Position numbers and translations under genes: made by a program | Assembly: GCA_026002795.1 (NCBI GenBank) | Contig: BPGA01000001.1 | Location: 180,001 to 212,000, forward strand | Origin: Candidatus Saccharimonadota bacterium | GTDB lineage: Archaea; Nanobdellota; Nanobdellia; Pacearchaeales; GW2011-AR1 | Length of the DNA: 32,000 nt | Reading direction: 5' to 3' | Notes under the pieces: generated by a model | Databases searched by the model: none | What the model was told of the DNA's origin: nothing | The model's input: the letters and a program-made list of their open reading frames with translations, nothing else | Shown: piece after piece, positions 2,784 to 32,000 of the stretch | Numbering within the stretch: position 1 is the stretch's first letter | Layout: each line of letters starts with the position of its first letter

Positions 2784-2898
2784 ACAATTTATTTAAGTTT
2801 TTGTTTTTATAAATCTTTCTATTTGTAACTCCTTAAAAGTTATAATTTATTTAAAAGGGATCAGCAAAATTTATAATCCCTTTTAGTTTTTTAAAAAA

Positions 2899-3342
2899 AT
2901 GAAGAAAAAAAGAAAAGTTTCATTTGTTGATGTGCTTCCGATTGAAACAAAATTGGATTCACATGATTTATTACAGATTATAATTGGCTCTTCTCTTCTT
3001 GCGATTCCTATAGGTTTTACTCAAGAAACTTGGGAAATTGGTGGATTTCTTCCTTTAACAAACATATTGGCTCTTGCTTTAATTTCAATCATATTTTTAG
3101 TTATTTTTACTTATGTTCATTATCATCAAGAACACATAAATTCAAACCCAAAAAGACACATTTATGAAATGCTAAAAAGAGTTTTTGCAACATATATTAT
3201 TTCTTTTTTTATAGTTGGATTATTTTTACAGATAATTAATGTCGCAGATTGGACAAATAATTTATTGGTTTCATTTAAAAGAACTGTTGTAGTTAATTTA
3301 CCTTCTTCTATGGGTGCTGCTCTTTCTGACAGATTAAAATAA
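2899..3342 (+). CDS. small integral membrane protein, 147 aa, 3-4 predicted TM helices
   Basis: Hydrophobic segments LLQIIIGSSLLAIPIGF, LPLTNILALALISIIFLVIFTYV and VFATYIISFFIVGLFLQII. No enzymatic motif recognised. Confidence 0.55.
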   Translation: MKKKRKVSFVDVLPIETKLDSHDLLQIIIGSSLLAIPIGFTQETWEIGGFLPLTNILALALISIIFLVIFTYVHYHQEHINSNPKRHIYEMLKRVFATYIISFFIVGLFLQIINVADWTNNLLVSFKRTVVVNLPSSMGAALSDRLK

Positions 3343-3353
3343 GCAAAATTGTT

Positions 3354-4646
3354 TTAAAGAGAATGAAATTGTTCATCTAATCTTTCATTTATCTCGCCAG
3401 CAAAATTTGTAAGCATTTTTTGTTTTATTATTTGTTTATTTTTTTTCCATTCTTTGTGACCTAAAATCCATCCTAGTTTCACAAAAGCTGTTTCAGAAAG
3501 CATATCTTCTAAAAATATTGCTCCTGCTTTTTCAAGTTCTCGACCGTTAGAGTATACATAAGGATCAACTCTTCCATAAATGCACTGACTTGTTACGCAA
3601 ACTATAATTCCATCTTTAGTTAGTTTTTTAATTTTCTTTAAAAAAGAATTTTTTGATAAAGATGAGACATGTCCTAGTCCAGTTGCTTCTATAACTAAGC
3701 CTTCATATTTATTCTTATGATAAAATTCTAAAATATCTGGATTTTGACCTGGATAGAATTTAATAAGAGCAACTTTATTGTTAAATTTTGCATCTAACTT
3801 CACTTTATTTTTTTCATTCCTTAATTTATGTTCAGAAAGAATTTCTATTTTGTCTGGCCAGATTTTTGCTATAGGCTTCCTATTTACTGACTTAAAAGCA
3901 TCTCTTCTTGATGTGTGAAGCTTTCTTGCTTTTGTTCCAAGAATTGCAAAACAAAAATCATCGTTCATAGTTGCATGTCCAACAAGCAAAACTTCTGCTA
4001 TATCTGAGATTGAAGCAAGAGCAGAGCATTGAAGATTTAAGTTGGCATCAGAGCTCGCTCTATCAATACTTCTTTGACTATAAGTCAAAATAACTGGTTT
4101 GTTTAAATTTTGTAAAAAGAAAGAAAGGGCTGATGCTGTATAGTGAAGAGTGTCTGTTCCGTGTGTTATAATTACTCCTTTTATTTCTTTATTGTTAAGC
4201 AAGTTGTAAGTTATTTTTGCAATTTTTTTCCAATCTTTAAAATCCATATCTTCTGAAGCTTTTGTAAAAGGAACAATGATTTTTTCTAAAGAAACTTTAT
4301 CAAATATTTTTGGGTAAAATTTAAAAAATTCTTCTGGCTTTGTAAGAGGAGAAACAGCTCCTGTCTTTGTATCAAGTTTTGATGCAATTGTTCCTCCAGT
4401 GATGATCATAGCTATTTTTGGTTTTTCTTGAGGTATTTTAATTTCTATTTTCTCTTCTTTTTTTTCTGCTTTTTTTATTAGCCTAATTTCTGAGATGTCT
4501 TTTTTCTTGAAGCCTATGTTGTATCCTGAATCGAGTTTAAGAAGGATAACCCCTTTTTCGTCTTTTGGAGATTCTAAAAGTATTCCTTTATAGCTTTTAT
4601 TAGGAAAAATTAATTCTACAAAATCTCCTGGATTAATGTTTTTCAT
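3354..4646 (-). CDS. gatD: Glu-tRNA(Gln) amidotransferase subunit D (GatD), asparaginase-like
   Basis: The asparaginase-family catalytic motifs IAMIITGGTIAS and ITHGTDTL are present. The N-terminal extra domain and the 430 aa length are typical of GatD. Confidence 0.9.
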   Translation of the reverse strand: MKNINPGDFVELIFPNKSYKGILLESPKDEKGVILLKLDSGYNIGFKKKDISEIRLIKKAEKKEEKIEIKIPQEKPKIAMIITGGTIASKLDTKTGAVSPLTKPEEFFKFYPKIFDKVSLEKIIVPFTKASEDMDFKDWKKIAKITYNLLNNKEIKGVIITHGTDTLHYTASALSFFLQNLNKPVILTYSQRSIDRASSDANLNLQCSALASISDIAEVLLVGHATMNDDFCFAILGTKARKLHTSRRDAFKSVNRKPIAKIWPDKIEILSEHKLRNEKNKVKLDAKFNNKVALIKFYPGQNPDILEFYHKNKYEGLVIEATGLGHVSSLSKNSFLKKIKKLTKDGIIVCVTSQCIYGRVDPYVYSNGRELEKAGAIFLEDMLSETAFVKLGWILGHKEWKKNKQIIKQKMLTNFAGEINERLDEQFHSL

Positions 4647-4659
4647 TTTTTATCTTTAT

Positions 4660-4745
4660 GGGCTTACTAGGAATCGAACCTAGATCTGCAGGTTTCTTCT
4701 AAAAATAACCGAAGCCTGCTGTTCTATCCATTGAACTATAAGCCC
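4660..4745 (-). tRNA. tRNA-Arg (anticodon UCG) with a 15-nt intron at the canonical 37/38 position
   Basis: Reverse complement folds as a cloverleaf. Acceptor GGGCTTA/TAAGCCC, D arm GTTC-AATGGATA-GAAC, anticodon stem GCAGG/CCTGC, T arm CTAGG-TTCGATT-CCTAG. The loop reads CT-TCG-G, then intron TTATTTTTAGAAGAA (plus-strand 4694..4708), then A. CUUC of the loop pairs with GAAG of the intron, leaving two 3-nt bulges (bulge-helix-bulge). No CCA is encoded. Confidence 0.82.
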
Positions 4746-4799
4746 AAAAATAATAAAATTGTTATATTTTTATATATTAATACTTTTTAAAAATATAAA

Positions 4800-5696
4800 A
4801 TGAAACAGAAAAATCAAAAACACCATGTGATTGTTGTTAAAAGACATCATAAATGGTTAATAGGTGGATTTACAACAATTGTCATAGTATTTATGATAAC
4901 AATAAGTATTTTTACTTACTCTCTTCTAGCTAGGATTGAAGTAAGCTATAAATCTCTAGATAAAAAAATACAGGATTTAAGAAGAGAAACAATTTCTGGA
5001 ATGAATGCTTTATCAGAGGGGATTATAGATACAAAAAACAGTATAAGAGAAGTTGAATCTAGAGTTGGAATTTTAACAGAAAGGGTTGATGTATTGAAAG
5101 CTTCTACATCTGATGATTTTTCAGGAATAATAGAAAAAGCTATTGATTCGGTGGTAACTATAAGAACAGATGTTTCTCAAGGAACTGGTTTTATAATACA
5201 TGAAGATGGTTATTTAATAACTAATGCCCATGTTTTATATGGTGCAAGATATGCAGAAGCTATAACTTCTAATCAAAAAAAATTGAAATTAAATCTTTTA
5301 GGTTATGATTCACTTATGGATATAGCTCTATTGAAAATAGAAGGAAGTTATAAGCCTTTAAAACTAGCAAATTCTGATAATGTTGCTGTAGGAGAGAGAG
5401 TAATTGCAATAGGAAATCCTTTAGGGTTACAATTCTCAGTTTCTCAAGGAATTGTTTCTGGAATTCATAGAGTTGGACCAAATGGTGTTGCAGCATATAT
5501 ACAAACAGACGCAGCACTAAATCCGGGAAATTCTGGCGGTCCTTTAATAAACAAAAATGGAGAAGTTATAGGAATAAACAATTTCAAAGCATCTGAAGGA
5601 GAAAATTTGGGTTTTGCTCTTGAATCAAACTTTATTAAAAATAGCGTGAATTCAATATATAAGCAATTTTATGAAACCAACAATAATCTTTTATAA
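4800..5696 (+). CDS. membrane-anchored trypsin-like serine protease (S1C, HtrA/DegP-like, no PDZ domain)
   Basis: N-terminal TM helix. Catalytic triad contexts ITNAHVL, DIALLKI and GNSGGPLIN are present. Confidence 0.85.
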   Translation: MKQKNQKHHVIVVKRHHKWLIGGFTTIVIVFMITISIFTYSLLARIEVSYKSLDKKIQDLRRETISGMNALSEGIIDTKNSIREVESRVGILTERVDVLKASTSDDFSGIIEKAIDSVVTIRTDVSQGTGFIIHEDGYLITNAHVLYGARYAEAITSNQKKLKLNLLGYDSLMDIALLKIEGSYKPLKLANSDNVAVGERVIAIGNPLGLQFSVSQGIVSGIHRVGPNGVAAYIQTDAALNPGNSGGPLINKNGEVIGINNFKASEGENLGFALESNFIKNSVNSIYKQFYETNNNLL

Positions 5697-6027: not shown

Positions 6028-7152
6028 TCAACTTGTTAAATAGTCTATTGTAAGATTATAATTCGTGTCTTTAATATTTGCCTCTAATATTAAATAACTT
6101 CCTGGACTAATTATAAGAGTATCTTTATAATTTGTAGCAGTCCTAGACCATAAAATTTTCTCTGGGCTGTCCCTATTAACTATCCTATAAAAATCGTTTT
6201 TGTCTTTTGTTAATCTCATTCTTACGGAACTAGAAGAGGTAAAATCTATGCTAACACTAGCATTATAATCGAATCCGTATCCTTCAGGGTATAGTGGAAT
6301 TAATTGCACATAATTATAACTTAAATTTTCATTAAGGTATTCTTGTCGAAGCGAAATGAAATCCATCGTTATATAGCAAAGTCTCCTTTTACAAGCAATC
6401 CCAACCCCTGCATCGCTATAAAGATTATCCAAATCTAATAAAGTTGAACGATGACCTGGACTTCTAAGCCATCCATCTATAGACTCTTTTGCAATATCTG
6501 TATTTGGGTAAACGGGTAAAAGAATTAAATTTTCATTAGAAACTATATAAGGTATATTTGCATCTTTTAATCTTTGACTAAAATCTACGGATTCTAAAGT
6601 TTCTGCATATTTTAAAGTACGATGACTAAAATATTCTTTTTCTAACATATCTTTACTATGTTCTCTCGCAATTTGACTTATTTTTTCATTCCACCTTAAA
6701 GAACGAATTCCAGACCTTGGGTATTTTTGCCTCTCTAAATTAACCAAATTAAAGATTTCTCTTTCTATTTTGTTTAAGTCTAATTGGGTCGCATCAAAAG
6801 TAGCATTAATAAAATCTTGATAAGATACAATATACTCCTGCTCACCGTTCTGGATTGCCTCTCCTTTAAAATCCCAATACATCTCAAATTGTTTCCCCTG
6901 GTAAATCCCTTTAAGCATTAATTCTCCAGATTCCAAATCTGAAATATTTGCTTTTAATATTCCATTCTTCGTTTCTCCCAAATAAATGCCGTTGAGATAA
7001 ACTTCTCCGTTTATAGGACTTCCATCTTCACTGGATGAAAATTTAAATTTAAAGTATTGATCAGGAAAAAAGGCATAATAGATAACATTTAGTGAATATA
7101 AAAGACCGATAATGGCAAAAATATAAAAAAATAGTTTTTTTATTTTTCTCAT
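6028..7152 (-). CDS. secreted or anchored CAP/SCP (PR-1, YkwD-like) domain protein, 374 aa
   Basis: N-terminal signal/TM (FFYIFAIIGLLYSL). CAP-domain pattern LRWNEKISQIAREHSKDMLEKEYFSHRT ... GWLRSPGHRSTLLD ... AGVGIA, flanked by beta-rich regions. Confidence 0.72.
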   Translation of the reverse strand: MRKIKKLFFYIFAIIGLLYSLNVIYYAFFPDQYFKFKFSSSEDGSPINGEVYLNGIYLGETKNGILKANISDLESGELMLKGIYQGKQFEMYWDFKGEAIQNGEQEYIVSYQDFINATFDATQLDLNKIEREIFNLVNLERQKYPRSGIRSLRWNEKISQIAREHSKDMLEKEYFSHRTLKYAETLESVDFSQRLKDANIPYIVSNENLILLPVYPNTDIAKESIDGWLRSPGHRSTLLDLDNLYSDAGVGIACKRRLCYITMDFISLRQEYLNENLSYNYVQLIPLYPEGYGFDYNASVSIDFTSSSSVRMRLTKDKNDFYRIVNRDSPEKILWSRTATNYKDTLIISPGSYLILEANIKDTNYNLTIDYLTS

Positions 7153-9516: not shown

Positions 9517-10080
9517 ATGGTAAGAAAAAATATCAAAAACGGTAAAAGGAACAAAAGAGATATTAAGGAAGCAATAAAAGAGTATTTTTTTGTTCATCCT
9601 AATGCCAAGATGCGAGTAAGGCAGATTGAAAAAGAGCTTAAATTGCCCCTGCCTTCTGTGATAAGATATTGTAAAGAGCTTGTAAATGAAGGAATTTTAA
9701 AAACAGTAAAAACAGGAAATGTTGTTTTTTATACAAGCAATGCCTCTAATGAAAATTTTATTCTTGAAAAAAAGCTCTTTAACATAAAATCTCTTTACAA
9801 GTCAAGGCTTATAGAATTCTTGAAAAGAGAATTTAGCAATCCTGTGATTGTTGTTTTTGGCTCTTATGCACACGGCCAAGATGTTGAGAACAGCGATATT
9901 GACTTATACATACAAACGCCTTCTAAAAAAGAAATAAACTTGGAAAAGTTTGAAAAAACTCTAAAAAGAAAAATACAGGTTTTCAGACATAAAGGCATAA
10001 GTGAAATAAAAAACACTCACCTAATAAACAACATAATAAATGGCATTACTTTAAACAATTATTTAGAGGTTTTCAAATGA
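9517..10080 (+). CDS. winged-helix fused minimal nucleotidyltransferase (MNT-type, antitoxin-like)
   Basis: N-terminal wHTH (VRQIEKELKLPLPSVIRYCKELVNEGILK). NTase motif VVFGSYAHGQDVENSDIDLYI (GS...DxD). Overlaps the downstream HEPN gene by 4 nt (ATGA). Confidence 0.82.
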   Translation: MVRKNIKNGKRNKRDIKEAIKEYFFVHPNAKMRVRQIEKELKLPLPSVIRYCKELVNEGILKTVKTGNVVFYTSNASNENFILEKKLFNIKSLYKSRLIEFLKREFSNPVIVVFGSYAHGQDVENSDIDLYIQTPSKKEINLEKFEKTLKRKIQVFRHKGISEIKNTHLINNIINGITLNNYLEVFK

Positions 10081-10484
10081 GAGATTGGAATGAATGTTTA
10101 GATAATCAATCAGCAAAAAGAACTTCAGTAAACAAAGAAAGAGCAAAATCTCTTTTGAAAACAGCAAATGAAAGAATAAGTCTTTTTAAAGAAGTAACAG
10201 AAAAGAACTGCAACTTTGTTTTTGAAGATTATTATACTTCATTAATAGAGATGCTGCAGGCGCTTGCTTTCTTAAACGGTTTCAATATATTGAATCATGT
10301 TTGCGTTGGTTTCTATTTAAGAGATGTCTTAAAAAGAGAGGATTTATTTAGGTTATTTGATGATTTAAGATATAAAAGAAATTCTCTCACATATTATGGC
10401 AACAAAATGGAATTTGAAACAGCAAAAGAAGCAATAGAAAATTGTAAAAGATTAATAAAAGAGATAAAGTTCATGATAAAATGA
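10077..10484 (+). CDS. HEPN-domain protein (toxin-like partner of the MNT)
   Basis: All-helical 135 aa protein immediately downstream of an MNT. The C-terminal DLRYKRNSLTYYG matches the HEPN R-N-x3-[HY] position, with Tyr where RNase-type HEPNs have His. Confidence 0.7.
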   Translation: MRDWNECLDNQSAKRTSVNKERAKSLLKTANERISLFKEVTEKNCNFVFEDYYTSLIEMLQALAFLNGFNILNHVCVGFYLRDVLKREDLFRLFDDLRYKRNSLTYYGNKMEFETAKEAIENCKRLIKEIKFMIK

Positions 10485-10543
10485 AAAAAGTTTTTAGGTG
10501 TTGAAAATTAAAAAAATTAGAATATTAAGATTTACAATTTAAA

Positions 10544-10563
10544 TTTTGTGCGTTTAAATTGTT
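10544..10563 (+). repeat. right copy of the perfect 20-bp direct repeat TTTTGTGCGTTTAAATTGTT
   Basis: Identical to 9406..9425. Lies 59 nt after the HEPN stop codon. Confidence 0.85.
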
Positions 10564-10616
10564 GAGCTTTAAGTTTATGTATTAATTTAAGATACAAATT
10601 TATAAATTTCTATTTT

Positions 10617-11666
10617 TCAATTAAAATGTTTTATTGTTTTAATAAGGTTCTCTTTAAACTCATCAAGTTTATTTGTTGGAATTTGGCCGCCGACAGCTTC
10701 TTCATGACCGCCGCCAGAAGCACCTTCAATTCCTTTTATTGATTCTAAAAGAATTTTTAAAGATTTTTTTCCTCTCATTGAAATATTGGTTTTTAATCCT
10801 TTTATATAAGCTACAAGAACAATTTTGTCTGGATAGTTATAGATAAGCTCATTTGATAAATGACCGCTAATGCTTAATTCTCCAGAATACTTAAAGAAAA
10901 GTAATTTTTCTTTATTGACTTGGCTTTTAGCTTTTAATAAAAGTTTTTCATATTTTTTGTATACCTCACTAAATCTTTTATGAATTTTTTTATTTTCTTG
11001 ATTTTCATTTAGTATTTCGTATGGACTTTTACAATTTATAAGAAATTCTATCATACTCTTAACATTAGAGGGTTTATCATTTAAAGCAAAACCTAAAATT
11101 CTAGCAATTTTGCCTATTGGTGATTTATAAAAGATATCTGAAGGATTTTTTGATTTTATTGTTAGGTCAGGAAATTTTTTTTCAAATTCTTTATAAAAAT
11201 TAGGAAAAAATTTATCGGAAATACAACCTATAACAGCAATCCATATGTCTTCTTTATTTTTTGTTATCTGATAAGAAAGATAAGTAACTGGTTCTTCTCC
11301 TTTCTTTTTGTTGAAAAGAGGATTATAATAATGTACAAACTTTGGAATGTTTTGTAAATTGATGTGATGGTGGTCTATCCAAAAAACAGGAATTCTATTA
11401 TTTTTAATTTCTTCAAAAAACTCGCCAGAAACAACTGGCTTGTCTAAAATAAATACGCAATCAGATGAAAATTCTTTTACTTTTTTAAAATAGCTTTTGT
11501 TCAGGTCTGGAAAAGATTTTATTGAAATGCCTTCTCCTTTTCCAAAAAATCTTCTTAGCAATAGAAAACTACATAAGCCGTCTTGATCATTATCAAACAT
11601 AAAAATAGGATTTTGATAGTTTAAAAGTGCTTTTTTAATTTCAAAAATTTGTTTTTGTGTTAGCAT
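10617..11666 (-). CDS. stand-alone DHH/DHHA1 phosphoesterase (NrnA/DhhP/RecJ-like), 349 aa
   Basis: DHH motifs FMFDNDQDG, FILDKP, WIDHHH and GCISDKF, plus the DHHA1 motif SGGGHEEAVGG. Confidence 0.85.
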   Translation of the reverse strand: MLTQKQIFEIKKALLNYQNPIFMFDNDQDGLCSFLLLRRFFGKGEGISIKSFPDLNKSYFKKVKEFSSDCVFILDKPVVSGEFFEEIKNNRIPVFWIDHHHINLQNIPKFVHYYNPLFNKKKGEEPVTYLSYQITKNKEDIWIAVIGCISDKFFPNFYKEFEKKFPDLTIKSKNPSDIFYKSPIGKIARILGFALNDKPSNVKSMIEFLINCKSPYEILNENQENKKIHKRFSEVYKKYEKLLLKAKSQVNKEKLLFFKYSGELSISGHLSNELIYNYPDKIVLVAYIKGLKTNISMRGKKSLKILLESIKGIEGASGGGHEEAVGGQIPTNKLDEFKENLIKTIKHFN

Positions 11667-11693
11667 AAATAAAATAAAAAATTATAAAGTTTT

Positions 11694-12794
11694 TTATATC
11701 TTTTTTCCCATTAAAATTTTTTCTTTCAAATTTTTTATTTCAAGAATTATAGATTCGACAAGATTTTCGTTTTTAAAAATTGATTTTAAAGAGTCAGAAT
11801 CTAAGTTAAATATCTTATCTAAACTTTTAAAATTAGAAATCATTGTCTCTATATCTTTATCTAAGATATTTGTTTTACTTAAAATTCTTATTCCTTTTGG
11901 AGAAACTGAAGAATCGTGAAGCTGACCAAAAAATATTCTTATTAAATTGTTTGTGTCAATTAAAAAATCAAAGTTCAGATTTTTTAAAATATTGTCAATT
12001 TTTTTTGATTTTTTTCCAAAATAATCTAAAAGAATTTTTTCTCTTTCGTTTGCTATGTTTTTTGTAAGTTCTTTAAGACGCATACTAACTATAGTTCCTT
12101 CTTTACCTAACTCTATAAGATACCTTTTAACTTTTTCTGAAATTCTTCTCACCATCTCAAATGTTTGTAAAATATTACAAACGTCTGCTGTAGTAGTTAA
12201 ATTAGTAACCTCTAAAATGTTTAGATGAGAAAGTAATTCATTAAGCATATCTACTTGTTTTTCAAGAATTTGTAAAGTTTCTGCTGCTCTTCTTAAGATT
12301 TCAGATGTTTCTTCTAAGTTGTATTGTTCTTCTTTATGATAGATAGTTATCTTGTTTTTTCTTTCTGATATAGCAATTACTGTTGTTCCTAATTGTTTAG
12401 CTGTCCTCTCAGCTGCTTTATGTCTAGTTCCTGTTTCTCTTGTTATTATTTTTATATTTGGAGTAAGAAGAACATTAGCATAAAGGATTTTTTTAAGATC
12501 TTTTGAAAGGATTATTGCTCCATCCATTTTCGAAAGTTCAACAAGTCTTTGTGGATTAAATTTACAGTTTATTTTAAAACCACCTTCAATAATATTTTCG
12601 ATGCCTTCCTTTTCTATCACAATCAAAGCTCCAAGTTGAGCTTTTAAAATATCGTCTAAAGCTGTTCTAAGAGGGGTTCCAGGAGAAAAAATTTTAAGAA
12701 TGTCTAAAAGAGTTTTTTCAATTTCTTTTTGTGTTTGTTTTTTTTCTTCTCTTAGATTTTCTTCAGAAGAAATTATCTCTTTTTGTTCAGTCAT
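11694..12794 (-). CDS. disA: DisA-type diadenylate cyclase (DAC domain, helical linker, C-terminal HhH-like region)
   Basis: PGTPLRTALDDILKAQLGALIVI, ELSKMDGAIIL and ETGTRHKAAERTAKQLGTTVIAISERKNKITIY match the DisA DAC domain (DGA and RH motifs). The 366 aa length is that of bacterial DisA. Confidence 0.86.
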   Translation of the reverse strand: MTEQKEIISSEENLREEKKQTQKEIEKTLLDILKIFSPGTPLRTALDDILKAQLGALIVIEKEGIENIIEGGFKINCKFNPQRLVELSKMDGAIILSKDLKKILYANVLLTPNIKIITRETGTRHKAAERTAKQLGTTVIAISERKNKITIYHKEEQYNLEETSEILRRAAETLQILEKQVDMLNELLSHLNILEVTNLTTTADVCNILQTFEMVRRISEKVKRYLIELGKEGTIVSMRLKELTKNIANEREKILLDYFGKKSKKIDNILKNLNFDFLIDTNNLIRIFFGQLHDSSVSPKGIRILSKTNILDKDIETMISNFKSLDKIFNLDSDSLKSIFKNENLVESIILEIKNLKEKILMGKKI

Positions 12795-12833
12795 CTAAAA
12801 GAAAAATAGATTATGTATATAAATTTTTATAAC

Positions 12834-13748
12834 TTAGTTTTTGACATAAGACCAAATAATCGGTAAAGCTATTGTAGCATCACAAATTACATCGACAAAA
12901 TCTAAATCTTTTTTTGAGTTTGTTTTAAGCTTACCCCAAGAAATTCCTTCCTCTAAAGGAGCACCAGAACTTCCTCCAAATTCTTCTCTTTCTGTTGTTA
13001 TTTGAACACCATAATCAGCTCCTCCAGAAAATTGTAGGGCTTGTTGAATGAAATTTTTAGGTGTTCCGCCTCCAATATAGATAACTGCTTTTTTATTTTT
13101 AGTCCACACAATATTTATAAAATCGCTAAGCTCATTAAAAAAATCTATATTTGTGTATTTAGAAGATTTAATTCTGCTCCATAACATTAATCCTAATCCG
13201 GAATCTAAAAGTGTTGGACAAAAAATAGGCGTTTTTGTAGAGTAACATATTGAAAAAATACTATTTTGATTTTTTAGAATTTTTCCAATTAGCCAGTAAA
13301 ATTCGATATTATTTTTAGAGTTTTTAAGAAAAGACCAGTTTTTTTCCAAAAATTTTTCTATTTTTTTGTAAACTAGGTTTTTCATAAAAACATTATAAAT
13401 CCTATCATAACCTTTTTTTTGAAAGATAATATCGTTCCAAACATCACAATGATAATGGTTTTCTCCTAAAGCTTCGGCAAGATCATGGGTTAGGTTTGCT
13501 CCAGTAATAACAATTGCTTTTATTTTTTTTGTTTTAATCATGTCAATTATTATCTCTTTCATTCCAGCTGGAACCATTGCTCCGGCAATACCTAAGAAAA
13601 TATCACATTTTTCCTCGTAAAAAATTTTTTTAAAAATTTCTGAAGCAAGACCAATTTTTCTAGCTCCAAAACCAGCATTTTTCATGTTTTTTACGAGTTT
13701 TTTAACTTTCATTTCTTTAGTTATTTTTATATGTCTAACTTTTTCCAT
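12834..13748 (-). CDS. dys: deoxyhypusine synthase
   Basis: ITGANLTHDLAEALG, YIGGGTPKNF and the catalytic-lysine context EEGISWGKLK. Confidence 0.88.
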   Translation of the reverse strand: MEKVRHIKITKEMKVKKLVKNMKNAGFGARKIGLASEIFKKIFYEEKCDIFLGIAGAMVPAGMKEIIIDMIKTKKIKAIVITGANLTHDLAEALGENHYHCDVWNDIIFQKKGYDRIYNVFMKNLVYKKIEKFLEKNWSFLKNSKNNIEFYWLIGKILKNQNSIFSICYSTKTPIFCPTLLDSGLGLMLWSRIKSSKYTNIDFFNELSDFINIVWTKNKKAVIYIGGGTPKNFIQQALQFSGGADYGVQITTEREEFGGSSGAPLEEGISWGKLKTNSKKDLDFVDVICDATIALPIIWSYVKN

Positions 13749-22955: not shown

Positions 22956-23474
22956 ATGAAAAAAATAAATTTGTTTTTAGTCGGTCAGAAAATTTTTTCT
23001 AATTCAGAAGAGGCATTTTTATTAAATAAAAAAAGTTATTTTGGTGAAAATGTTGACGGCAAAATAGTTTATTCTTTATGTGAAGCTCTTTTTTTGATAG
23101 AAGAAAATAAAGCAACGGTTTTAAGCAAAAAAAAGAAACTAAGTTTTAATGATTTAATAAAAAAATTTGTTAGATATGATTCTAGATTAATGGTAAAATA
23201 TGTAGTTTTTAAAGATCTAAGAAAAAAAGGTTATATAGTAAAAACAGCTTTAAAATACGGTGCTGATTTTAGGGTTTATGAAAAAGGGAAAAAACCTGGC
23301 AAAGAACATGCGAAGTGGATTGTCTTTTGCGATAGTGAAAGTAAAAAAATAAATTGGGTTGATTTTTCTGCAAGAAACAGAATCGCAAACTCTGTAAAGA
23401 AAAAACTTTTAATAGCAATAGTTGATGAAGAGGGTGATATAACTTATTATGAAGTTAGTTGGGTAAAACCTTAA
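22956..23474 (+). CDS. endA: tRNA-splicing endonuclease, short homotetramer-type subunit
   Basis: LRKKGYIVKTALKYGADFRVYEKG...HAKWIV matches the EndA catalytic region (Tyr/His, with Lys further on). Length is 172 aa. Confidence 0.85.
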   Translation: MKKINLFLVGQKIFSNSEEAFLLNKKSYFGENVDGKIVYSLCEALFLIEENKATVLSKKKKLSFNDLIKKFVRYDSRLMVKYVVFKDLRKKGYIVKTALKYGADFRVYEKGKKPGKEHAKWIVFCDSESKKINWVDFSARNRIANSVKKKLLIAIVDEEGDITYYEVSWVKP

Positions 23475-27604: not shown

Positions 27605-27620
27605 TATTTATTAATAAATA
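27605..27620. promoter_or_regulatory. perfect 16-bp palindrome TATTTATTAATAAATA upstream of the wHTH gene (possible operator)
   Basis: Self-complementary by inspection. Lies 45 nt upstream of the ATG at 27665, in a spacer with other AATAGAT/TAATTTAT repeats. It is AT-only, so a chance match is not negligible. Confidence 0.25.
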
Positions 27621-27664
27621 GATTTATAAATGAATAGATCTTAAAAATTTGGGGGTTGAAAAGA

Positions 27665-27931
27665 ATGCATGATAAAATATCAGATTTAGTTCTAAAAACA
27701 ATTCAAGAGTCAGATGAGCCTTTAGAAACAAAAGAAATTCAAGAAAAGATTATAACACAAATTAGAGGAGTTACACGAACAAAGATTTTTTATAGATTAA
27801 ATTTATTGAGAGGAGAAGGATTAATCAAAGGAAAATTTGTTGGGCCTGGAAAGGGTGTTTGGATTTGGTGGGCAGAAAACAATCTTCTAAAAAATGAACA
27901 AAAAAGAGGTGAAAATGATAATTCAAGTTAA
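27665..27931 (+). CDS. small winged-helix protein, 88 aa (putative transcriptional regulator)
   Basis: LETKEIQEKIITQIRGVTRTKIFYRLNLLRGEGLIKGKFVGPGKGVWIWW looks like HTH plus wing. I prefer the ATG at 27665 (GGGGG 9 nt upstream) to the track's TTG at 27656. Confidence 0.6.
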   Translation: MHDKISDLVLKTIQESDEPLETKEIQEKIITQIRGVTRTKIFYRLNLLRGEGLIKGKFVGPGKGVWIWWAENNLLKNEQKRGENDNSS

Positions 27932-28151
27932 TGAAGTAAATAATTTAATAAAATTTGAAGAAGTTTTTACAAATTCAAAATTATTAAGAGGTATGATAAA
28001 ATTAAGCTATATAATAAATAAAAAAAGAAACTACTTTGTTTATACTTTTTTTGAGATTTGGAATCAAAAAACTCTTTTCAACCCGCATGGCTCTGATGTA
28101 AATTCAGAGCCATTATACCCATCAATAAAAAAAGAGGTGGAAAATGAATAG
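27915..28151 (+). CDS. hypothetical small protein, 78 aa
   Basis: The ATG at 27915 is preceded by GAGGTGA (27906..27912). It overlaps both the upstream and the downstream gene. No motif recognised. Confidence 0.45.
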   Translation: MIIQVNEVNNLIKFEEVFTNSKLLRGMIKLSYIINKKRNYFVYTFFEIWNQKTLFNPHGSDVNSEPLYPSIKKEVENE

Positions 28152-28746
28152 AAAAATTTTACTTTGGACATTTGCAATTTCAGGATTTACAGCTTTAGTT
28201 TATGAAATAGTCTGGAGTAGACAACTTCAGCTGATATTTGGCTCTACAGTTTATGCGGTTTCAACAATATTGACAACTTTCTTTGTTGGATTTTCTCTAG
28301 GCTCTTATCTATTCAGGAATGTTGCAGATAATTCAAAAAATCCTGTAAAATTATTTGCATTAATTCAAATTGGAATTGGTTTATATGCTGTAATAATATT
28401 ATGGCTTTTCAAGATTCTTCCGTCTTTTTATATTCATCTAACAAACATTCCAGGAATTCAGTTCATTCAATTTTTGTTGCTTTTTTTAATTATAATAACT
28501 CCAGCGACTTTATTTGGAGCTACGTGGCCAGTAATAAGCAAATCTTATATTGATTATGAAAAATTAGGAAAAGACACAGGAAGACTTTATGCATTCAATT
28601 CATTTGGCTCTTTCCTAGGGCCTCTAGCAGCAGGGTTTGTTTTAGTTCCTATTTTAGGGATAATAAAAACTTCTCTTTTAATGGCTTTAATTAATATAAT
28701 AATCGGCACAATATTAATTTCAAGAGGTAAAAAAAATGAGAATTAA
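28144..28746 (+). CDS. stand-alone 6-TM membrane module, paralogous to the N-terminal domain of the downstream spermidine-synthase-like fusion
   Basis: FAISGFTALVYEIVWSRQLQLIFGSTVYAVSTILTTFFVGFSLGS aligns with FVFSGAAALIYEITWIRPLQFVFGSTVYTISIIFAAFMGGLALGS of the next protein, and the similarity continues over about 195 aa. A GAGGTGG SD sits at 28134..28140. Confidence 0.72.
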   Translation: MNRKILLWTFAISGFTALVYEIVWSRQLQLIFGSTVYAVSTILTTFFVGFSLGSYLFRNVADNSKNPVKLFALIQIGIGLYAVIILWLFKILPSFYIHLTNIPGIQFIQFLLLFLIIITPATLFGATWPVISKSYIDYEKLGKDTGRLYAFNSFGSFLGPLAAGFVLVPILGIIKTSLLMALINIIIGTILISRGKKNEN

Positions 28747-30415
28747 TTTAAGAAGTTTACTAATAATAGCATTTGTGTTTTCAGGAGCAGCAGCTTTAAT
28801 TTATGAGATAACATGGATTAGGCCATTGCAGTTCGTCTTTGGCTCAACTGTTTATACAATTTCTATTATATTTGCTGCATTTATGGGTGGCTTGGCTTTA
28901 GGATCTTTAATTATTTCAAAATACATTGATAAACTAAAAAACCTTCCAAAAACTTACGCATTATTTGAAATTGGAATAGGAATTTATGGTGTTTTGCTGT
29001 TAAGTATATTTAATCTGCTTCCTGGTATTTACAATTCATTATATTTCTTACATACAAACTTTTACTTATTTGAATTTGTACAATTCTTAATTGTCTTTTT
29101 GGTTTTATTGATTCCAACAACTTTAATGGGTGCGACTTTTCCTGTTATTGCAAAATTCTATACAAAAGAAAAGATTGGAAAAGCCATTGGAGAAGTTTAT
29201 TCTGCAAATAATGTTGGAGCAATAATAGGAAGTTTTGCTGCAGGATTTATTTTAATTCCTTTAATTGGAATAAAAGAAAGTATAATTTTTGCGGGCAGTA
29301 TAAACATGTTAATTGGTTCAATAATAATTTTGAAATCAAAAAGTTTTGAGGAAAATAGAGATAAAATTTTCATAATAACATCAGTTTTATTGTTCCTTAT
29401 TCTAGCTTATATTGGAAATTACAGCATACAACAAATGCATTCTGGAGGATTTTATAGAACTTTAGAAATAGAAAAAGATCTTGGCCCTGTAATTTATTAT
29501 AATGAAGGACTTTATGCAACTGTAAGTGTAAGAGAACTTTTTGGAAAAGGAAAAGCATTATTTATCAATGGAAAAGGCCAGGGAAGTACTGGAATTTTTG
29601 ATTTAAGAGTTAATTTTATGCTTGCTTATTTACCAATATTATTAAAGCCGGATACTAAGGATGTATTAGTTATTGGTTTAGGAACTGGAACAACTTCTGG
29701 ACAGCTTGCTCAAAGCGTTAATGTAAAAACTATTGAAATTGAATCAGCAGTTTTGGAAGGAAGTAAATATTTTTCAACTTTTAATTTAAATGTACTTGAA
29801 AATCCGAACCATACTTTAATTATAGATGATGGAAGAAATTGGCTTTTGAAAAATGAAGAAAAATATGATGTAATAATTCCAGAACATAGTGATCCGTGGC
29901 AATCTTTTTCAACAGCATTATTTTCAAAAGAGTTTTTGGAACTTGCCTCTGAAGATTTAGATGAAAATGGGTTGTATGTACAATGGGTTCCTATATATCA
30001 AATGTCTGTAAAAGATTTCAAAAATTTCTATAAAACATTTACTTCTGTATTTCCAAATGTTGTTGTATTTGCAAATATAAAACCAGATGAAGATACTCCT
30101 GTAAGATTTGAAACTTCTGAATTAATTTTTGTTGGTTCTAAAAATAAAATAAATATTAGTGAAGAATTAATTAATGAAAACTATAATAAATTACCGGAAA
30201 TTTCCAAGCAACAGCTAAATCTAATAAGATTATCTTCAGGTTCTGAAATTTATCATTTATTTGTTTTTAAAAGTGAACAAATGAAAGGCTATGCAGATGA
30301 TGCAAAAATAATTACTGATGATAATTTACTTTTGGAATTTTCAACAGCGAAACGAGTTTTAAATCAAGGTCCTAAGGAGGTGATAAATGATATTGAAAGG
30401 TTTGTTTCAGAATAA
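28736..30415 (+). CDS. polytopic membrane domain fused to a spermidine-synthase-fold (class I methyltransferase-like) domain
   Basis: About 7 TM helices, followed by VLVIGLGTGTTSGQLA, IEIESAVLEGSKYF, IIDDGRNWL, YDVIIPEHSDPW and LFSKEFLELASEDLDENGLYVQW. This follows the SpeE-family motif order, but with GxGxG in place of GGGDG. Confidence 0.8.
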   Translation: MRINLRSLLIIAFVFSGAAALIYEITWIRPLQFVFGSTVYTISIIFAAFMGGLALGSLIISKYIDKLKNLPKTYALFEIGIGIYGVLLLSIFNLLPGIYNSLYFLHTNFYLFEFVQFLIVFLVLLIPTTLMGATFPVIAKFYTKEKIGKAIGEVYSANNVGAIIGSFAAGFILIPLIGIKESIIFAGSINMLIGSIIILKSKSFEENRDKIFIITSVLLFLILAYIGNYSIQQMHSGGFYRTLEIEKDLGPVIYYNEGLYATVSVRELFGKGKALFINGKGQGSTGIFDLRVNFMLAYLPILLKPDTKDVLVIGLGTGTTSGQLAQSVNVKTIEIESAVLEGSKYFSTFNLNVLENPNHTLIIDDGRNWLLKNEEKYDVIIPEHSDPWQSFSTALFSKEFLELASEDLDENGLYVQWVPIYQMSVKDFKNFYKTFTSVFPNVVVFANIKPDEDTPVRFETSELIFVGSKNKINISEELINENYNKLPEISKQQLNLIRLSSGSEIYHLFVFKSEQMKGYADDAKIITDDNLLLEFSTAKRVLNQGPKEVINDIERFVSE

Positions 30416-32000
30416 AAAAGGTTTAATTCAAAAAAGTATGACTTTAATTTTCATAGCTTTTGCTTTATTTGCTTTAATATTTTTGGTATATAATTCAAAG
30501 TATGCTTCAGCTGCAAAATCAGATCAATTCTTTATAGGCAATTTTACATGTGAAAGTTTTGAAGATGCTCTTTTATGGAGTGCTGTAGGACAAAAAAGTG
30601 CACCAACAAATAGTTATTTTGGATGGGTACCGGCAGTAGGATGTAATTCAAGCATTAATACAGTAGGTCCTAAAGCATGTGATATACATAAAATACAAAG
30701 TTTTGTAAGATATTCAAATATTGGAACAGCGAATAGTTTAACTACAGGACAAGTATATGCTCAAATCGCAAACACAACACAATCAAATGAAACAAACCCT
30801 TCATCAGCAAACTTTACTTTAGCAAGATATTTTGCAAGATTAAATGAAACGGTAGTTGCGGGAGATGTTTTAGGTCCAAGATATGAATGTGGAATTGCTT
30901 CAGACACTACTTCAATAAATAGAACATGTCAAGTTAATGGAAGTGGATATGATAACAGCACTTTTAATTATTCTGTTCGTTTATTTGCAGATGGAGCTGC
31001 TAATGGAAAAACAAGAGCTTTAATTGATGTTTTCAATATAAAATACGACTGGTGTTGGACGCCAATAATTTATGATGCAGTTGTGACTCCTGACATTGCA
31101 GATAATGAAACAACTTTCACATTTACCATTAATGTTACAAATCCTGGAGCAACAACAAATGTTTCTTTGTTTACAGCACCTCTAGGATCAAATGAGTGGG
31201 TACAGGAAGGGGCTACTCAAACTTGTATAGATTGTGCACAAAAAAAGCTGACATTTAATGTGAATTTTGGAAACCGTATTGGAAAAAGAATTTTTAAGTT
31301 TAATGCAACAGACGGCACTTACGGCACTGAAGCTGGAAATCCAGCACATTTAGGAACAGCAACAAACGAATGCCTTGACACAGATAATGATTGCCAGTTT
31401 GAAGTAACTCAAGCAGCGGCAGCACAGGGAACTCCAAATATCATAAATGAAACAGTAAATGGTGTTCAGTCAGGAGCTGTTGAAGGCTGGGGAACAAACT
31501 GGACTTTTTCTGTAAATGTAAGTAACCCTCCTGATGGAGCAGGAGATATTAATGTAACTCTTTTTGTTAATACTGGGTCTGGCTTTATACAAAAAGCATC
31601 TGCAAATTGTACAGCGCCTTGCTCCAGCTCAACAAAATTTACTTTCTTTGTGGATGATTTTCAATGTTCTGATATTTCTTCTGCTCAATACAGATTTACT
31701 GCAACCAATCTTAACGGAACTACAACTGTAACCCACCCATTTACAATCGAAAGAGATGATGTAATTATTGAGCATATTCAAGGAAACAATAGCATTGCAA
31801 ATAGAAGTGGAAACCAGATAGATTTGCTTATTGTTAGGGTTTTTGACTCTGATAAAGCTCCTTCAGGAGCATATATTGGAAGTGGAACAAATGTTACTTT
31901 TAACGTAAAATTTGATGATGTAAACTTTGATGCTGGAACAAACAGAACAACAAATTCATCTGGATATGCTAATTATTCTTTTGACCCAACATGTTCTCCA
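30387..32000 (+). CDS. large secreted/surface protein, 5' partial (at least 538 aa, runs off the window), sequon-rich with Ig-like internal repeats
   Basis: Not in the ORF track because no stop codon occurs in the window. My translation from the ATG at 30387 is open to base 32000. AAGGAGGTGA lies at 30374..30383. N-terminal TM/signal MTLIFIAFALFALIFLVY..ASA. I count 26 N-x-S/T sequons and about 14 Cys by hand. Two repeats of roughly 85 aa lie at about 31101..31340 and 31486..31745. Confidence 0.8.
   Translation, partial: MILKGLFQNKKGLIQKSMTLIFIAFALFALIFLVYNSKYASAAKSDQFFIGNFTCESFEDALLWSAVGQKSAPTNSYFGWVPAVGCNSSINTVGPKACDIHKIQSFVRYSNIGTANSLTTGQVYAQIANTTQSNETNPSSANFTLARYFARLNETVVAGDVLGPRYECGIASDTTSINRTCQVNGSGYDNSTFNYSVRLFADGAANGKTRALIDVFNIKYDWCWTPIIYDAVVTPDIADNETTFTFTINVTNPGATTNVSLFTAPLGSNEWVQEGATQTCIDCAQKKLTFNVNFGNRIGKRIFKFNATDGTYGTEAGNPAHLGTATNECLDTDNDCQFEVTQAAAAQGTPNIINETVNGVQSGAVEGWGTNWTFSVNVSNPPDGAGDINVTLFVNTGSGFIQKASANCTAPCSSSTKFTFFVDDFQCSDISSAQYRFTATNLNGTTTVTHPFTIERDDVIIEHIQGNNSIANRSGNQIDLLIVRVFDSDKAPSGAYIGSGTNVTFNVKFDDVNFDAGTNRTTNSSGYANYSFDPTCSP

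Follow-up and report, generated by a model that had tools for sequence, protein, structure and literature searches.

A conserved gene cassette of DPANN archaea places a spermidine-synthase-fold membrane protein pair next to a giant surface protein

We carried out a computational characterization of a five-gene operon (g1 to g5) from a tiny symbiotic-type archaeon (Pacearchaeota), located at the end of the window, i.e. the whole 32,000-nucleotide stretch of DNA analyzed. The conserved unit within this operon is a three-gene core, g3-g4-g5, which is found in ca. 20 DPANN loci from several lineages and encodes two membrane proteins, one of them carrying a spermidine-synthase (SpeE) fold, followed by a giant surface protein. 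Our tentative reading is that the core would work outside the cytoplasm on surface proteins that bear a domain here termed g5N, as an alkyl-transfer or docking machine supplied through an MFS-type unit.

The five genes lie on the same strand (+) and comprise g1 (27665-27931; 88 aa, a small basic protein with an ATG start and an alternative TTG at 27656), g2 (27915-28151; 78 aa, an orphan ORF preceded by the Shine-Dalgarno site GAGGTGA), g3 (28144-28746; 200 aa, a free-standing 6-TM module), g4 (28736-30415; 559 aa, 6-TM plus 1-TM plus SpeE-fold) and g5 (30387 to >32000; 538 aa within the window, whose end cuts the gene). The coordinates agree with the overlaps of 17, 8, 11 and 29 nt reported in the first-pass annotation, and position 27605, given there as the start, does not begin a gene and falls within the promoter-like element region 5' of g1. 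Translational coupling of g1 to g5 into one unit, as claimed earlier, is supported. GAGGTG was confirmed 4-6 nt 5' of the start codons of g2, g3 and g5, and GAGGT is present upstream of the g4 start. GAGGTG occurs five times on both strands of the 32-kb window compared with 3.0 occurrences expected by chance, a frequency that taken alone is unremarkable; the g2, g3 and g5 starts account for three of the five sites. The described rarity of such sites elsewhere in the window holds, with a Shine-Dalgarno site of at least 5 nt at just one more gene (10077-10484). This other gene is also an internal overlapping cistron. Shine-Dalgarno sites confined to internal cistrons are common in archaea whose first cistrons are devoid of them. 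The pattern seen for g2 to g5 supports an operon and is by itself not unusual.

Neighbourhood comparison contradicts the idea that the five-gene order as a whole is conserved, as g1 is confined to close Pacearchaeota and g2 is without a homologue in the fetched loci. A g3-type gene lies upstream of g4 in all 24 assessable DPANN-type loci, and the proposed link to a giant surface protein holds for 21 of the 22 DPANN-type loci that could be assessed, with a giant g5-like ORF as the next gene downstream. The g3-g4-g5 order is kept down to 42% identity in ca. 20 non-redundant loci whose surroundings otherwise differ. Junctions in the cassette loci overlap or abut, and the Shine-Dalgarno site at the g3/g4 junction is conserved. 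The MAGs concerned are labelled as Pacearchaeota, Woesearchaeota, Nanoarchaeota and Aenigmatarchaeota, with several more being unplaced or mis-binned. For the wider fused family in bacteria, no constant partner was found among 65 loci and the basic activity of the family therefore cannot depend on g5.

A promoter-like element (ATAAATAGATTTATAAATGAATA; 27614..27636, +) containing a TATA-like palindrome (ATTTATAAAT) is located ca. 30 nt 5' of g1. It is nearly invariant 5' of the g1 orthologues in the Pacearchaeota loci L002, L008 and L011, inverted repeats are present in the surrounding region, and it presumably acts as a promoter or operator. The g1 protein (GIU68384.1, annotated as hypothetical) had been called a winged-helix protein. 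Its Pfam matches are all sub-threshold (HTH_12, E = 0.012; FUR, E = 0.039) and its top PDB profile match is NsrR at E = 1.6; these faintly suggest such a fold, and g1 is possibly a winged-helix regulator. Orthologues with 56-61% identity were found only in the Pacearchaeota-type loci L002, L008, L011, L021 and L031 and head the cassette in every locus that has one. The g2 protein (GIU68385.1, likewise hypothetical) forms a singleton cluster with no family match in Pfam and NCBIfam searches, and the fetched loci contained no homologue of it at a cut-off as permissive as E = 10. Its slot is filled in relatives by two secreted-protein genes, encoding a NEW3/CARDB-like protein and a small paralogue of the N-terminal domain of g5, and g2 may be a spurious ORF.

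In our reading, an MFS-type fold is split between two genes: g3 (28144..28746, +), whose termini are both predicted to be cytoplasmic, supplies its N-terminal half, and residues 1-205 of g4 (28736..29350, +), a second 6-TM module, its C-terminal half. As previously recognized, g3 and the N-terminal part of g4 are clear paralogues (44% identity over 202 aa, E = 7e-52), both match the NF037959 profile (g3: 64.5 bits, g4: 82.3 bits, cut-off 40), and g3 has at least 163 homologues of ca. 200 aa. In locus L019, a g3-like module and a g4-like protein form a single natural fusion, P0091, and the next gene encodes 7586 aa; g3 is 48% identical to module 1 and 38% to module 2 of this fusion. Because such fusions occur in the same genomic context, g3 and g4 can be regarded as one machine. 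L008 and L011 show a further split, with separate genes for the TM6 and TM1-SpeE parts of g4. Pfam MFS_1 matches g4 with 30.6 bits (residues 9-199), and in fused relatives it scores above cut-off in one collinear stretch that spans the two modules (57.5 bits, profile positions 23-295 of 347). Further, polar residues are conserved in the MFS-type helices (E24, R29, N158) and a K-rich TM2-TM3 loop occupies the position of MFS motif A. Of the heteromeric membrane complex suggested in the first-pass annotation, the joint action of g3 and g4 thus stands, based on the same-context fusions, whereas two MFS halves are a better description than a generic heteromer.

The seventh TM helix of g4 (residues 206-229; 29351..29422, +) is predicted to cross the membrane to the outside. 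Seven TM helices are present in the AF2 model of g4 (pLDDT 88.7, pTM 0.82), with a pLDDT of ca. 94 for the helix at residues 206-226. The loop just before this helix (KSKSFEENRDK) is K/R-rich, with a mean of 2.7 K+R in 43 sequences. Segments of g4 predicted to be inside contain 10.4 K+R compared with 2.9 outside (43 sequences), and for g3 loops the values are 11.5 and 1.8 (120 sequences). With an odd number of TM helices and a cytoplasmic N-terminus, the SpeE-like domain would therefore be located outside, and based on the positive-inside rule and MFS convention it is probably extracytoplasmic. N-glycosylation sequons are depleted in this domain (O/E 0.41), which is readable either way for topology.

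The SpeE-fold domain covers g4 residues ~245-446 (29468..30073, +) and carries the motifs GLGTGT, EIE, DDGRN and PEHSDPW. All motifs that had been listed before were found (GLGTGT 314-319, DDGRNWL 364-370, SDPW 385-388, LFSKEF 395-400), and g4 matches PF01564 with E = 9e-18. Residues 290-450 were modeled by AF2 with block-mean pLDDT values of mostly 93-97 (range 80-97), and Foldseek searches with the domain returned SpeE, TSPS and human SRM with target TM-scores of 0.70-0.77. Active-site residues were mapped onto 1INL and 2B2C, and conservation was determined for 89 sequences (25 DPANN-type and 64 distant fused sequences, including free-living-type bacteria). Residues G314/G316/G318, E334, D365, D378, E383, R367, W388, TDD527-529 and E534 are conserved over this set. 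Like SpeE (T. maritima 1INL, human SRM 2O06, T. thermophilus 1UIR), g4 possesses the fold including the N-terminal beta-hairpin part, the motif order, the ribose-binding Glu and the adenine-binding Asp, and, in the DPANN clade only, the second Asp of DxxDP (D386). In contrast to SpeE, GGGDGG is changed to GLGTGT, with S or T occupying position 317 (the Asp of GGGDG) in 80 of the 89 sequences and Asp in none. The catalytic Asp, Asp170 in T. maritima SpeE, has Glu383 as its counterpart, and the active-site Tyr and Gln are replaced by Val and Asn. Additional differences are the invariant residues Arg291 (DPANN-type clade only) and Arg367 (family-wide), a 110-aa C-terminal extension, and the tethering of the domain to the membrane at the predicted outside of the cell. 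Foldseek and family-wide conservation agree on a SpeE fold with cofactor-type motifs but without the dcSAM-specific Asp, as the motif pattern had suggested. As the active site is remodelled family-wide, g4 is not a canonical aminopropyltransferase, and it misses the SpeE equivalog cut-offs widely (TIGR00417: 78.7 vs 249.55 bits; PRK03612: 129 vs 472 bits). Canonical SpeE alignments stop near residue 446; the extension beyond it (residues 447-559; 30074..30415, +) is family-specific and contains a TDD...LEF motif (T527, D528, D529, E534) kept in 25 of 25 DPANN-type and ca. 61 of 64 distant fused sequences.

The g5 protein starts with a signal peptide (residues 1-42; 30387..30512, +) preceded by AAGGAGGTGA, with predicted cleavage after ASA. 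Homologues keep its N-region, hydrophobic core and AxA-type site. The Cys-rich, beta-rich g5N domain (residues 43 to ~235; 30513..31091, +) and a sequon-rich CARDB/Ig-like repeat region (residues ~236-538; 31092..32000, +), cut by the window end, follow. Alignments show g5N to be shared between the giant proteins and small secreted paralogues of the cassette, and a g5N HMM run over 100 loci gave matches in cassette loci only. For g5N, searches of Pfam and of the PDB (the latter up to E = 10) gave no match, and only 47 clusters among 1.84 billion representatives matched. The g5N domain is new and private to the cassette partner proteins, which have signal peptides and conserved Cys residues. 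Its AF2 model is of poor quality, with a pLDDT of 50. In L006, L012, L013 and L014, g5N is found at residues ~520-820; it is not always N-terminal, and the idea of an N-terminal modification is therefore weakened. Mature g5 contains 26 sequons compared with 9.5 expected (2.7-fold enrichment), and its internal repeats resemble the downstream repeats of homologues. These homologues show weak Ig-like, CarboxypepD_reg and NEW3 matches and range from 851 to >3333 aa, with 7586 aa in L019.

In agreement with the first-pass annotation, no description of this cassette was found in the literature searched. The closest known proteins are those of NCBIfam NF037959, 'fused MFS/spermidine synthase', which include the '7TM transporter-like + spermine/spermidine synthase-like' proteins noted in PspA operons, the published bacterial context being PspA-CesT/Tir (PMC11237479). 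The NF037959 proteins share the TM motif SGxxAL.YE..W.R...G.T.Y with g3 and g4, and with g4 a SpeE-like domain having S/T for the GGGDG Asp, an invariant R367 and the TDD..LEF tail. They consist of a single 750-1290-aa chain, whereas the cassette uses two genes (three in L008 and L011) and is tied to a giant secreted protein whose Cys-rich domain is private to it and its partners. Other neighbours (MoxR/DUF58, amine oxidase, PilX-like and DUF2341/LamG proteins) were seen for the bacterial members examined. Putrescine N-methyltransferase, a soluble, SAM-using plant cytosolic enzyme, evolved from spermidine synthase, and the dcSAM Asp of its G-rich loop is changed to a non-acidic residue so that the SAM carboxylate is accepted. 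It shares with g4 the SpeE scaffold without the dcSAM-specific Asp but, unlike g4, has no transporter and no surface-protein partner. In AT3-SGNH O-acetyltransferases (OatA, OafA), the membrane part brings an activated group from a cytoplasmic donor to an extracytoplasmic enzyme modifying a surface polymer. The analogy to g4 is one of mechanism only, namely a polytopic membrane domain fused to an extracytoplasmic catalytic domain; the folds (AT3, SGNH) are unrelated, and these enzymes use acetyl-CoA as donor and modify glycans instead of proteins. Exosortase/archaeosortase-type systems combine a membrane enzyme, a transpeptidase, with co-encoded targets whose cognate domains are short C-terminal tripartite tails. 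Here, the analogy is one of logic only, with a polytopic enzyme beside secreted proteins having one rare common domain; in the cassette, this domain is globular, Cys-rich and ~175 aa long and the enzyme has a SpeE fold.

In the reading we tentatively put forward, g3 and the first six g4 helices would each contribute half of a single MFS-type unit of 12 helices, and a 13th helix, from g4, would set the SpeE-fold domain on the outer membrane face. This domain retains an adenosyl-cofactor-type site (GxGxG, ribose-binding Glu, adenine-binding Asp) and an acidic catalytic residue, having lost the dcSAM-specificity Asp of true spermidine synthases. The MFS unit would move a small co-substrate, most simply SAM or a related donor, else an amine, across the membrane to the outward domain, which would then transfer an alkyl group (methyl, aminopropyl or aminocarboxypropyl type) to a cell-surface acceptor. 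Secreted g5N proteins, the giant g5 here plus small paralogues in relatives, would be the acceptor or docking partner, and g1 may be a lineage-specific regulator. Something may be modified on or exported onto g5, as originally suggested. Points against this proposal include the few known precedents for SAM-dependent reactions on the outer side of the membrane and the finding of no SAM-related gene within the cassette, together with the varying position of g5N and the inconstant bacterial neighbourhoods described above.

The main alternative, which we consider somewhat unlikely, is a scavenging importer whose outward SpeE-like domain binds a substrate instead of acting as an enzyme. It would hand its ligand, a polyamine or adenosyl compound (spermidine, MTA, SAM) from host or environment, to the MFS unit for uptake, with the giant protein being a co-expressed adhesin that keeps the host close. 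The predicted outward topology and the joining of the domain to a transporter-type fold would fit an importer, SpeE folds bind polyamines and adenosyl ligands alike in PDB complexes, and DPANN genomes are biosynthetically reduced. Further, a deoxyhypusine synthase is encoded in the window (12834-13748, PF01916 289.8 bits), which implies that the cell requires spermidine or a similar amine. However, the invariance of E383 and the full cofactor motif set over the 89 sequences exceeds the needs of a binding domain, extracellular binding domains fused to MFS transporters are known only rarely, and the tight translational coupling of small and giant g5N proteins to g4 would be left unexplained. It is unlikely that catalysis was lost and the SpeE-like domain became an extracellular dock, holding the signal-peptide-cleaved giant protein and small paralogues via g5N with the TM modules as mere anchor. 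Strict conservation of GxGxG, the ribose Glu, the adenine Asp and E383 would be needless for a dock, even in bacterial relatives without g5N partners, and twelve conserved MFS-type helices with E24, R29 and N158 would make a costly anchor. A dock would fit the cleavable-looking g5 signal peptide and the truncated g5 genes, in whose available part no C-terminal anchor was seen; the private domain common to all partners suggests a binding handle, and key aminopropyltransferase residues are altered (D101 to T, Y to V, Q to N). Automatic annotation names such proteins spermidine synthase, matches to PF01564 and several SpeE equivalog models are significant but sub-threshold, and the deoxyhypusine synthase implies a need for spermidine. 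Nevertheless, a true but divergent spermidine/polyamine synthase with a cytoplasmic catalytic domain, an MFS part exporting its product and a g5 adjacency reflecting co-regulation only seems very improbable, given the missed TIGR00417 and PRK03612 cut-offs, the dcSAM-recognising Asp being present in 0 of 89 sequences, the replaced Tyr and Gln, and an odd TM number with a cytoplasmic N-terminus that places the domain outside. Although overlaps occur elsewhere in the window (e.g. 9517-10080 with 10077-10484) and g2 is a maybe spurious orphan, we see next to no chance that a functional link is absent and that the overlaps and the gene order simply arose through compaction of a reduced genome, as the g3-g4-g5 order survives the divergence and differing flanks given above and outlasts fission and fusion of its parts, comparative data that are strongly contrary.

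In conclusion, the components of this cassette are partly known while the cassette itself, its topology and its function were undescribed. The predicted outward position of the SpeE-like domain, missed in the first-pass annotation, changes the mechanistic problem posed by this cassette in a tiny symbiotic-type archaeon.

At the 3' end of the window, five + strand genes follow one another with overlaps of 17, 8, 11 and 29 nt, as confirmed from the ORF list and the raw sequence. These are g1 (27665-27931, 88 aa from an ATG start, with a TTG at 27656 also possible), g2 (27915-28151, 78 aa), g3 (28144-28746, 200 aa), g4 (28736-30415, 559 aa) and g5 (30387 to past 32000, 538 aa up to the window end). 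The sequence GAGGTG lies shortly before the start codons of g2, g3 and g5, and GAGGT before that of g4; over the whole window and both strands, GAGGTG occurs 5 times with 3.0 occurrences expected. The strong internal Shine-Dalgarno sites and their scarcity elsewhere, both described in the first-pass annotation, were reproduced, since a scan of all longer ORFs returned one further start with a site of at least 5 nt. This start belongs to the downstream gene (10077-10484, no family) of another overlapping + strand pair whose upstream gene (9517-10080) encodes a nucleotidyltransferase (NTP_transf_2/Polbeta), an arrangement that resembles a toxin-antitoxin module. Shine-Dalgarno sites at internal cistrons are usual in archaea whose first cistrons lack them, and the pattern favours an operon without being unusual. 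The operon had been taken to begin at 27605, where no gene starts; this position falls within an A+T-rich promoter-like element whose core, ATAAATAGATTTATAAATGAATA (27614-27636), recurs nearly unchanged ahead of g1 orthologues in three further Pacearchaeota loci. A conserved palindrome in this promoter-like element would be compatible with autoregulation. A programmed frameshift at the g3/g4 junction, which carries an A8 run in the window, was rejected because eight other loci keep the 11-nt overlap and the Shine-Dalgarno site, not the A-run. An Rfam search of the whole window returned two tRNAs and no riboswitch or further RNA family.

Two collection scans with g4-family alignments yielded 17 loci in species-representative genomes and 80 in metagenomes. 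ORFs were called in every locus and compared to those of the window with BLASTP and HMMs. In the DPANN-type clade (g4 identity of at least 41%; MAGs labelled Pacearchaeota, Woesearchaeota, Nanoarchaeota and Aenigmatarchaeota, together with several mis-binned MAGs), a g3-type gene is found upstream of g4 in all 24 assessable loci. In 21 of the 22 loci assessable for g5 (about 19 of 20 once near-duplicates are removed), a very large g5-related ORF begins no more than a few bases from the g4 stop. These ORFs range from 851 aa, the sole complete one, to more than 3333 aa, and the gene following P0091, a natural g3-g4 fusion, encodes 7586 aa. Conservation of the proposed five-gene order thus holds for the g3-g4-g5 linkage but not for its first two genes, as g1 is confined to the closest Pacearchaeota-type loci and homologues of g2 were absent from all fetched loci. 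The window has the order GlyRS, g1, cassette in common with three further Pacearchaeota loci. Relatives carry additional genes before or within the core, namely a NEW3/CARDB-like secreted protein, which in one locus (L002) ends in an NPCBM_assoc/NEW3 domain (PF10633, 36.7 bits vs a cut-off of 24.4), and a small secreted paralogue whose C-terminal 170 aa are homologous to the Cys-rich N-terminal domain of g5 (g5N).

The g4 family also includes a distant fused clade of 65 mostly high-GC loci (28-38% identity). No constant partner gene was found across these 65 loci; in two of them (L040 and L050) large DUF2341/LamG proteins directly follow the fused gene. In a Methanophagales MAG (L015), a fused member is located between large PKD/beta-helix and CARDB/NosD surface proteins (2310-4616 and 9974-13155) with g5N being absent; linkage to big surface proteins may therefore not be confined to DPANN. 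Five soil-type bacterial loci (L079, L091, L093, L096 and L097) have MoxR-type AAA and DUF58 genes ahead of the fused MFS/SpeE-like gene and a convergent, full-length flavin amine oxidase gene (PF01593, 220 bits) after it. This arrangement may hint that the MFS/SpeE-like family handles amines.

The first gene, g1, had been called a winged-helix protein. Its matches to winged-helix families are all sub-threshold (HTH_12, E = 0.012, 15.9 bits vs a cut-off of 21.4; FUR, E = 0.039; NsrR at E = 1.6 in a PDB profile search). In case of g2, no Pfam or NCBIfam match was obtained, and the protein forms a singleton cluster in a collection of 15 billion proteins. It occupies the place where relatives encode the NEW3-domain protein and the small g5N paralogue, which suggests gene loss in the window lineage, leaving a new or spurious ORF. 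A comparison of g2 with these two genes as a possible remnant gave zero similarity, even at E = 10. Its Shine-Dalgarno site is perfect and its ends overlap both neighbours.

The membrane part of the cassette is best described as a split MFS-type unit. g3 and the first 200 residues of g4 are paralogous, as initially proposed, with 44% identity (E = 7e-52). Both proteins exceed the cut-off of 40 bits of the NCBIfam model for fused MFS/spermidine synthases (NF037959; g3: 64.5 bits, g4: 82.3 bits), and its full architecture is only reached by the two jointly, with g4 providing one 6-TM half, TM7 and the SpeE-like domain and g3 providing the other half. Each TM module has six TM helices with inside-positive loops, and the predicted combination of g3 and g4 shows the defining features of an MFS protein: 12 TM helices, two homologous 6-TM halves and both termini of this unit in the cytoplasm. 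Homologues of g4 differ by length class: those of about 555 aa share the architecture of the window protein, those of about 356 aa combine a single TM helix with the SpeE-like domain, and those of 750-1290 aa combine this domain with two TM modules in tandem. P0091 (752 aa) represents a genuine fusion of a g3-like with a g4-like gene, its module 1 being nearer to g3 (48% vs 38% identity) and its module 2 nearer to the g4 TM part (48.5% vs 41%). As MAFFT always put g3-type and g4-type modules onto one P0091 module, the match to PF07690 (MFS_1) was used in place of a model of the pair; it runs over both modules in a single collinear stretch (57.5 bits, profile positions 23-295 of 347). Fusions such as P0091 exceed the MFS_1 gathering cut-off while g4 alone stays below it (30.6 vs 33.4 bits). 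In two further loci (L008 and L011), g4 is itself divided into a TM6 gene and a 356-aa gene. That the unit exists in one-, two- and three-gene forms argues strongly for an assembly of g3 and g4 into one machine. The heteromeric complex of TM paralogues suggested in the first-pass annotation is thereby refined to two halves of one predicted MFS protein. Polar residues conserved in TM1 and TM5 (E24, R29 and N158) are compatible with a polar path. The natural one-, two- and three-gene versions represent a useful case for fission and fusion of the 6+6 MFS fold.

A confident AlphaFold2 model of g4 (pLDDT 88.7, pTM 0.82) shows seven TM helices followed by a SpeE-like domain. The SpeE fold, consisting of an N-terminal beta-hairpin and a Rossmann-type domain, was recovered by both PF01564 (64.9 bits vs a cut-off of 22.9, E = 9e-18) and Foldseek, with target TM-scores of 0.70-0.77 to spermidine and thermospermine synthases (1UIR, 6BQ2, 2O06). 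The active site was mapped onto T. maritima and C. elegans SpeE. In contrast to canonical SpeE, g4 has GLGTGT in place of GGGDGG and thus lacks, as first noticed by eye, the Asp that recognizes the aminopropyl amine of dcSAM and excludes SAM. All 25 DPANN-type sequences have T at the corresponding position 317, the 64 distant ones have S, T, M or A, and D occurs in none. Further, the catalytic Asp (D170 in T. maritima SpeE) is replaced by E383 (E in 77 of 89 sequences, D in 3) and the active-site Tyr/Gln (YQ/YHE) by V292/N293. The ribose-binding Glu (E334) and the adenine-binding Asp (D365) are retained, and the second Asp (D173) is kept as D386, which is specific to the DPANN-type clade. Across the 89 non-identical sequences of both scans, the G-loop glycines, E334, D365, D378, E383, R367, W388 and the C-terminal TDD...LEF are essentially invariant. 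The SpeE equivalog cut-offs are missed widely by g4 (TIGR00417: 78.7 vs 249.55 bits; PRK00811: 80.5 vs 260 bits; PRK03612: 129 vs 472 bits). By these sequence measures, the domain is a distinct, conserved subfamily and not a canonical aminopropyltransferase. It is probably ligand-binding or catalytic, and the acidic residue retained at E383 would make some catalysis possible. The SAM-using putrescine N-methyltransferase arose from spermidine synthase by a comparable loss of the dcSAM-specific Asp; by analogy with this parallel change, a SAM-type donor seems likelier than dcSAM for g4.

The distribution of positive charges bears on the side of the membrane on which this domain is located. Among 43 g4-type sequences, K+R averages 10.4 in the N-terminus and the TM2-3, TM4-5 and TM6-7 loops vs 2.9 in the alternate loops; 120 g3-type sequences gave 11.5 for inside and 1.8 for outside loops. 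The K-rich TM2-TM3 loop coincides with the position of MFS motif A and, to our knowledge, the N-terminus is inside in all MFS proteins. Together, the charge distribution and the K-rich loop point to an inside N-terminus of g4, so that its seventh helix, the 13th of the assembled unit, would place the SpeE-like domain outside the membrane. An extracytoplasmic location is what we infer from these statistics. The adenosyl-type site would then face a SAM-free compartment unless the membrane unit supplies SAM. N-glycosylation sequons show observed/expected ratios of 0.41 in the SpeE-like domain, 0.78 in cytoplasmic proteins and 2.7 in g5; the depletion in the SpeE-like domain was not counted as topology evidence because it can be read either way.

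The third component of the core, g5, starts with a signal peptide with an AxA-type site, followed by the g5N domain of about 190 aa, which carries conserved Cys residues and the motifs W-S-A, CPG, Y-x-Q-I-A-N, R-Y-x-A-Y, C-G, N-T-C and Y-T-W-C-W. In 100 loci, a g5N HMM matched cassette proteins only, and some giants carry the domain away from the N-terminus, around residues 520-820. Neither Pfam nor PDB yielded a relative of g5N, and only 47 matching clusters were obtained among 1.84 billion representative proteins. An AlphaFold2 model based on 11 sequences (pLDDT 50, pTM 0.45) was too poor for a fold search. The remainder of g5 appears to consist of CARDB/Ig-like repeats, and the protein is enriched 2.7-fold in sequons, features that fit a predicted extracellular glycoprotein. 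No Pfam family matched the g5 fragment in the window, and the Ig-like matches of its giant homologues are all sub-threshold. In the only other contig with the exact window genes, g5 reaches 609 aa before the contig ends, and a homologue search returned 10 partial proteins. The sole complete homologue (L004, 4040-6595) has a hydrophobic end, MFPTMMLLLLLLTQN, following a masked N run; this would fit a candidate C-terminal membrane anchor in an interrupted sequence.

The DPANN assignment of the source is borne out by g4, which is identical to hypothetical protein KatS3mg001_237 of a Candidatus Pacearchaeota MAG. The remainder of the window is housekeeping, including four aminoacyl-tRNA synthetases, GatD/GatE, a tRNA splicing endonuclease (22956-23474), TFE, DisA and deoxyhypusine synthase. 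A tRNA-Arg(TCG) (4658-4746, - strand) is, at 89 nt, longer than a standard tRNA and thus probably contains an intron. The DisA-type diadenylate cyclase gene (11694-12794) adjoins a DHH/DHHA1 phosphoesterase gene (10617-11666), both on the - strand, and together they could make and break down c-di-AMP in a reduced genome. An AbiEii-like nucleotidyltransferase of a type IV toxin family (PF08843, 28.1 bits; 1977-2783, - strand) is encoded between the GatE and DUF2391 genes. A secreted trypsin-like protease (4800-5696, + strand) and a CAP/SCP-domain protein (6028-7152, - strand), encoded amid housekeeping genes, are likely two further extracellular proteins.

The cassette core is a conserved, co-translated module in which a split MFS-type unit is combined with a SpeE-fold domain and with secreted proteins sharing a private domain. 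Regarding its function, we are most confident that the parts would work together and, with decreasing confidence, propose that the SpeE-like domain is located outside the cell, that it may bind an adenosyl-type ligand and act catalytically, that the MFS unit might feed it a co-substrate and, least firmly, that g5N proteins might be its acceptor or docking partner. The leading alternative is a scavenging importer whose external binding domain would be the SpeE-like domain. Deoxyhypusine synthase (12834-13748, - strand; PF01916, 289.8 bits) indicates that the cell depends on spermidine or a similar amine to modify aIF5A, which speaks for such an importer. This need also bears on a possible polyamine role of the cassette as a whole. 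A non-catalytic anchor, to be weighed against the near-invariant E383, is less likely, as is a cytoplasm-facing polyamine synthase, which shares the SpeE fold and is set against the predicted outward topology and the altered active site. Returning to the proposed surface-directed function, there is a minority chance that the cassette is a surface-protein maturation system of a new type. In its fullest form, which we consider unlikely, it would contain the first AdoMet-type alkyltransferase outside the cytoplasmic membrane, use a dedicated MFS unit, encoded by two genes, as donor source and covalently modify or tether giant DPANN host-contact glycoproteins via a Cys-rich recognition domain not known before.

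The NF037959-type family is already known to annotation pipelines, and a '7TM transporter-like + spermidine synthase-like' fusion was reported from PspA operons of bacteria with no function given (PMC11237479). Beyond this, our literature search returned unrelated polyamine papers only. In agreement with the initial view of the architecture as undescribed, we found no account in this literature of the split form, of the SpeE-like domain's predicted outward orientation, of the g5N domain or of an obligatory pairing with giant surface proteins in DPANN.

Proteins of the g4 type should not be counted as spermidine synthases in DPANN metabolic reconstructions. The cassette further suggests a role for the widely annotated 'fused MFS/spermidine synthase' family, which gave more than 1,500 matches in our homologue search. 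A SpeE-fold domain with an adenosyl-cofactor site outside the membrane would raise the question of what powers extracellular SAM-type chemistry. Attachment to other cells is the way of life of DPANN archaea, and their giant surface proteins are leading candidates for host contact; a conserved partner machine that is translationally coupled to them may thus offer a handle on how these proteins are matured or retained.
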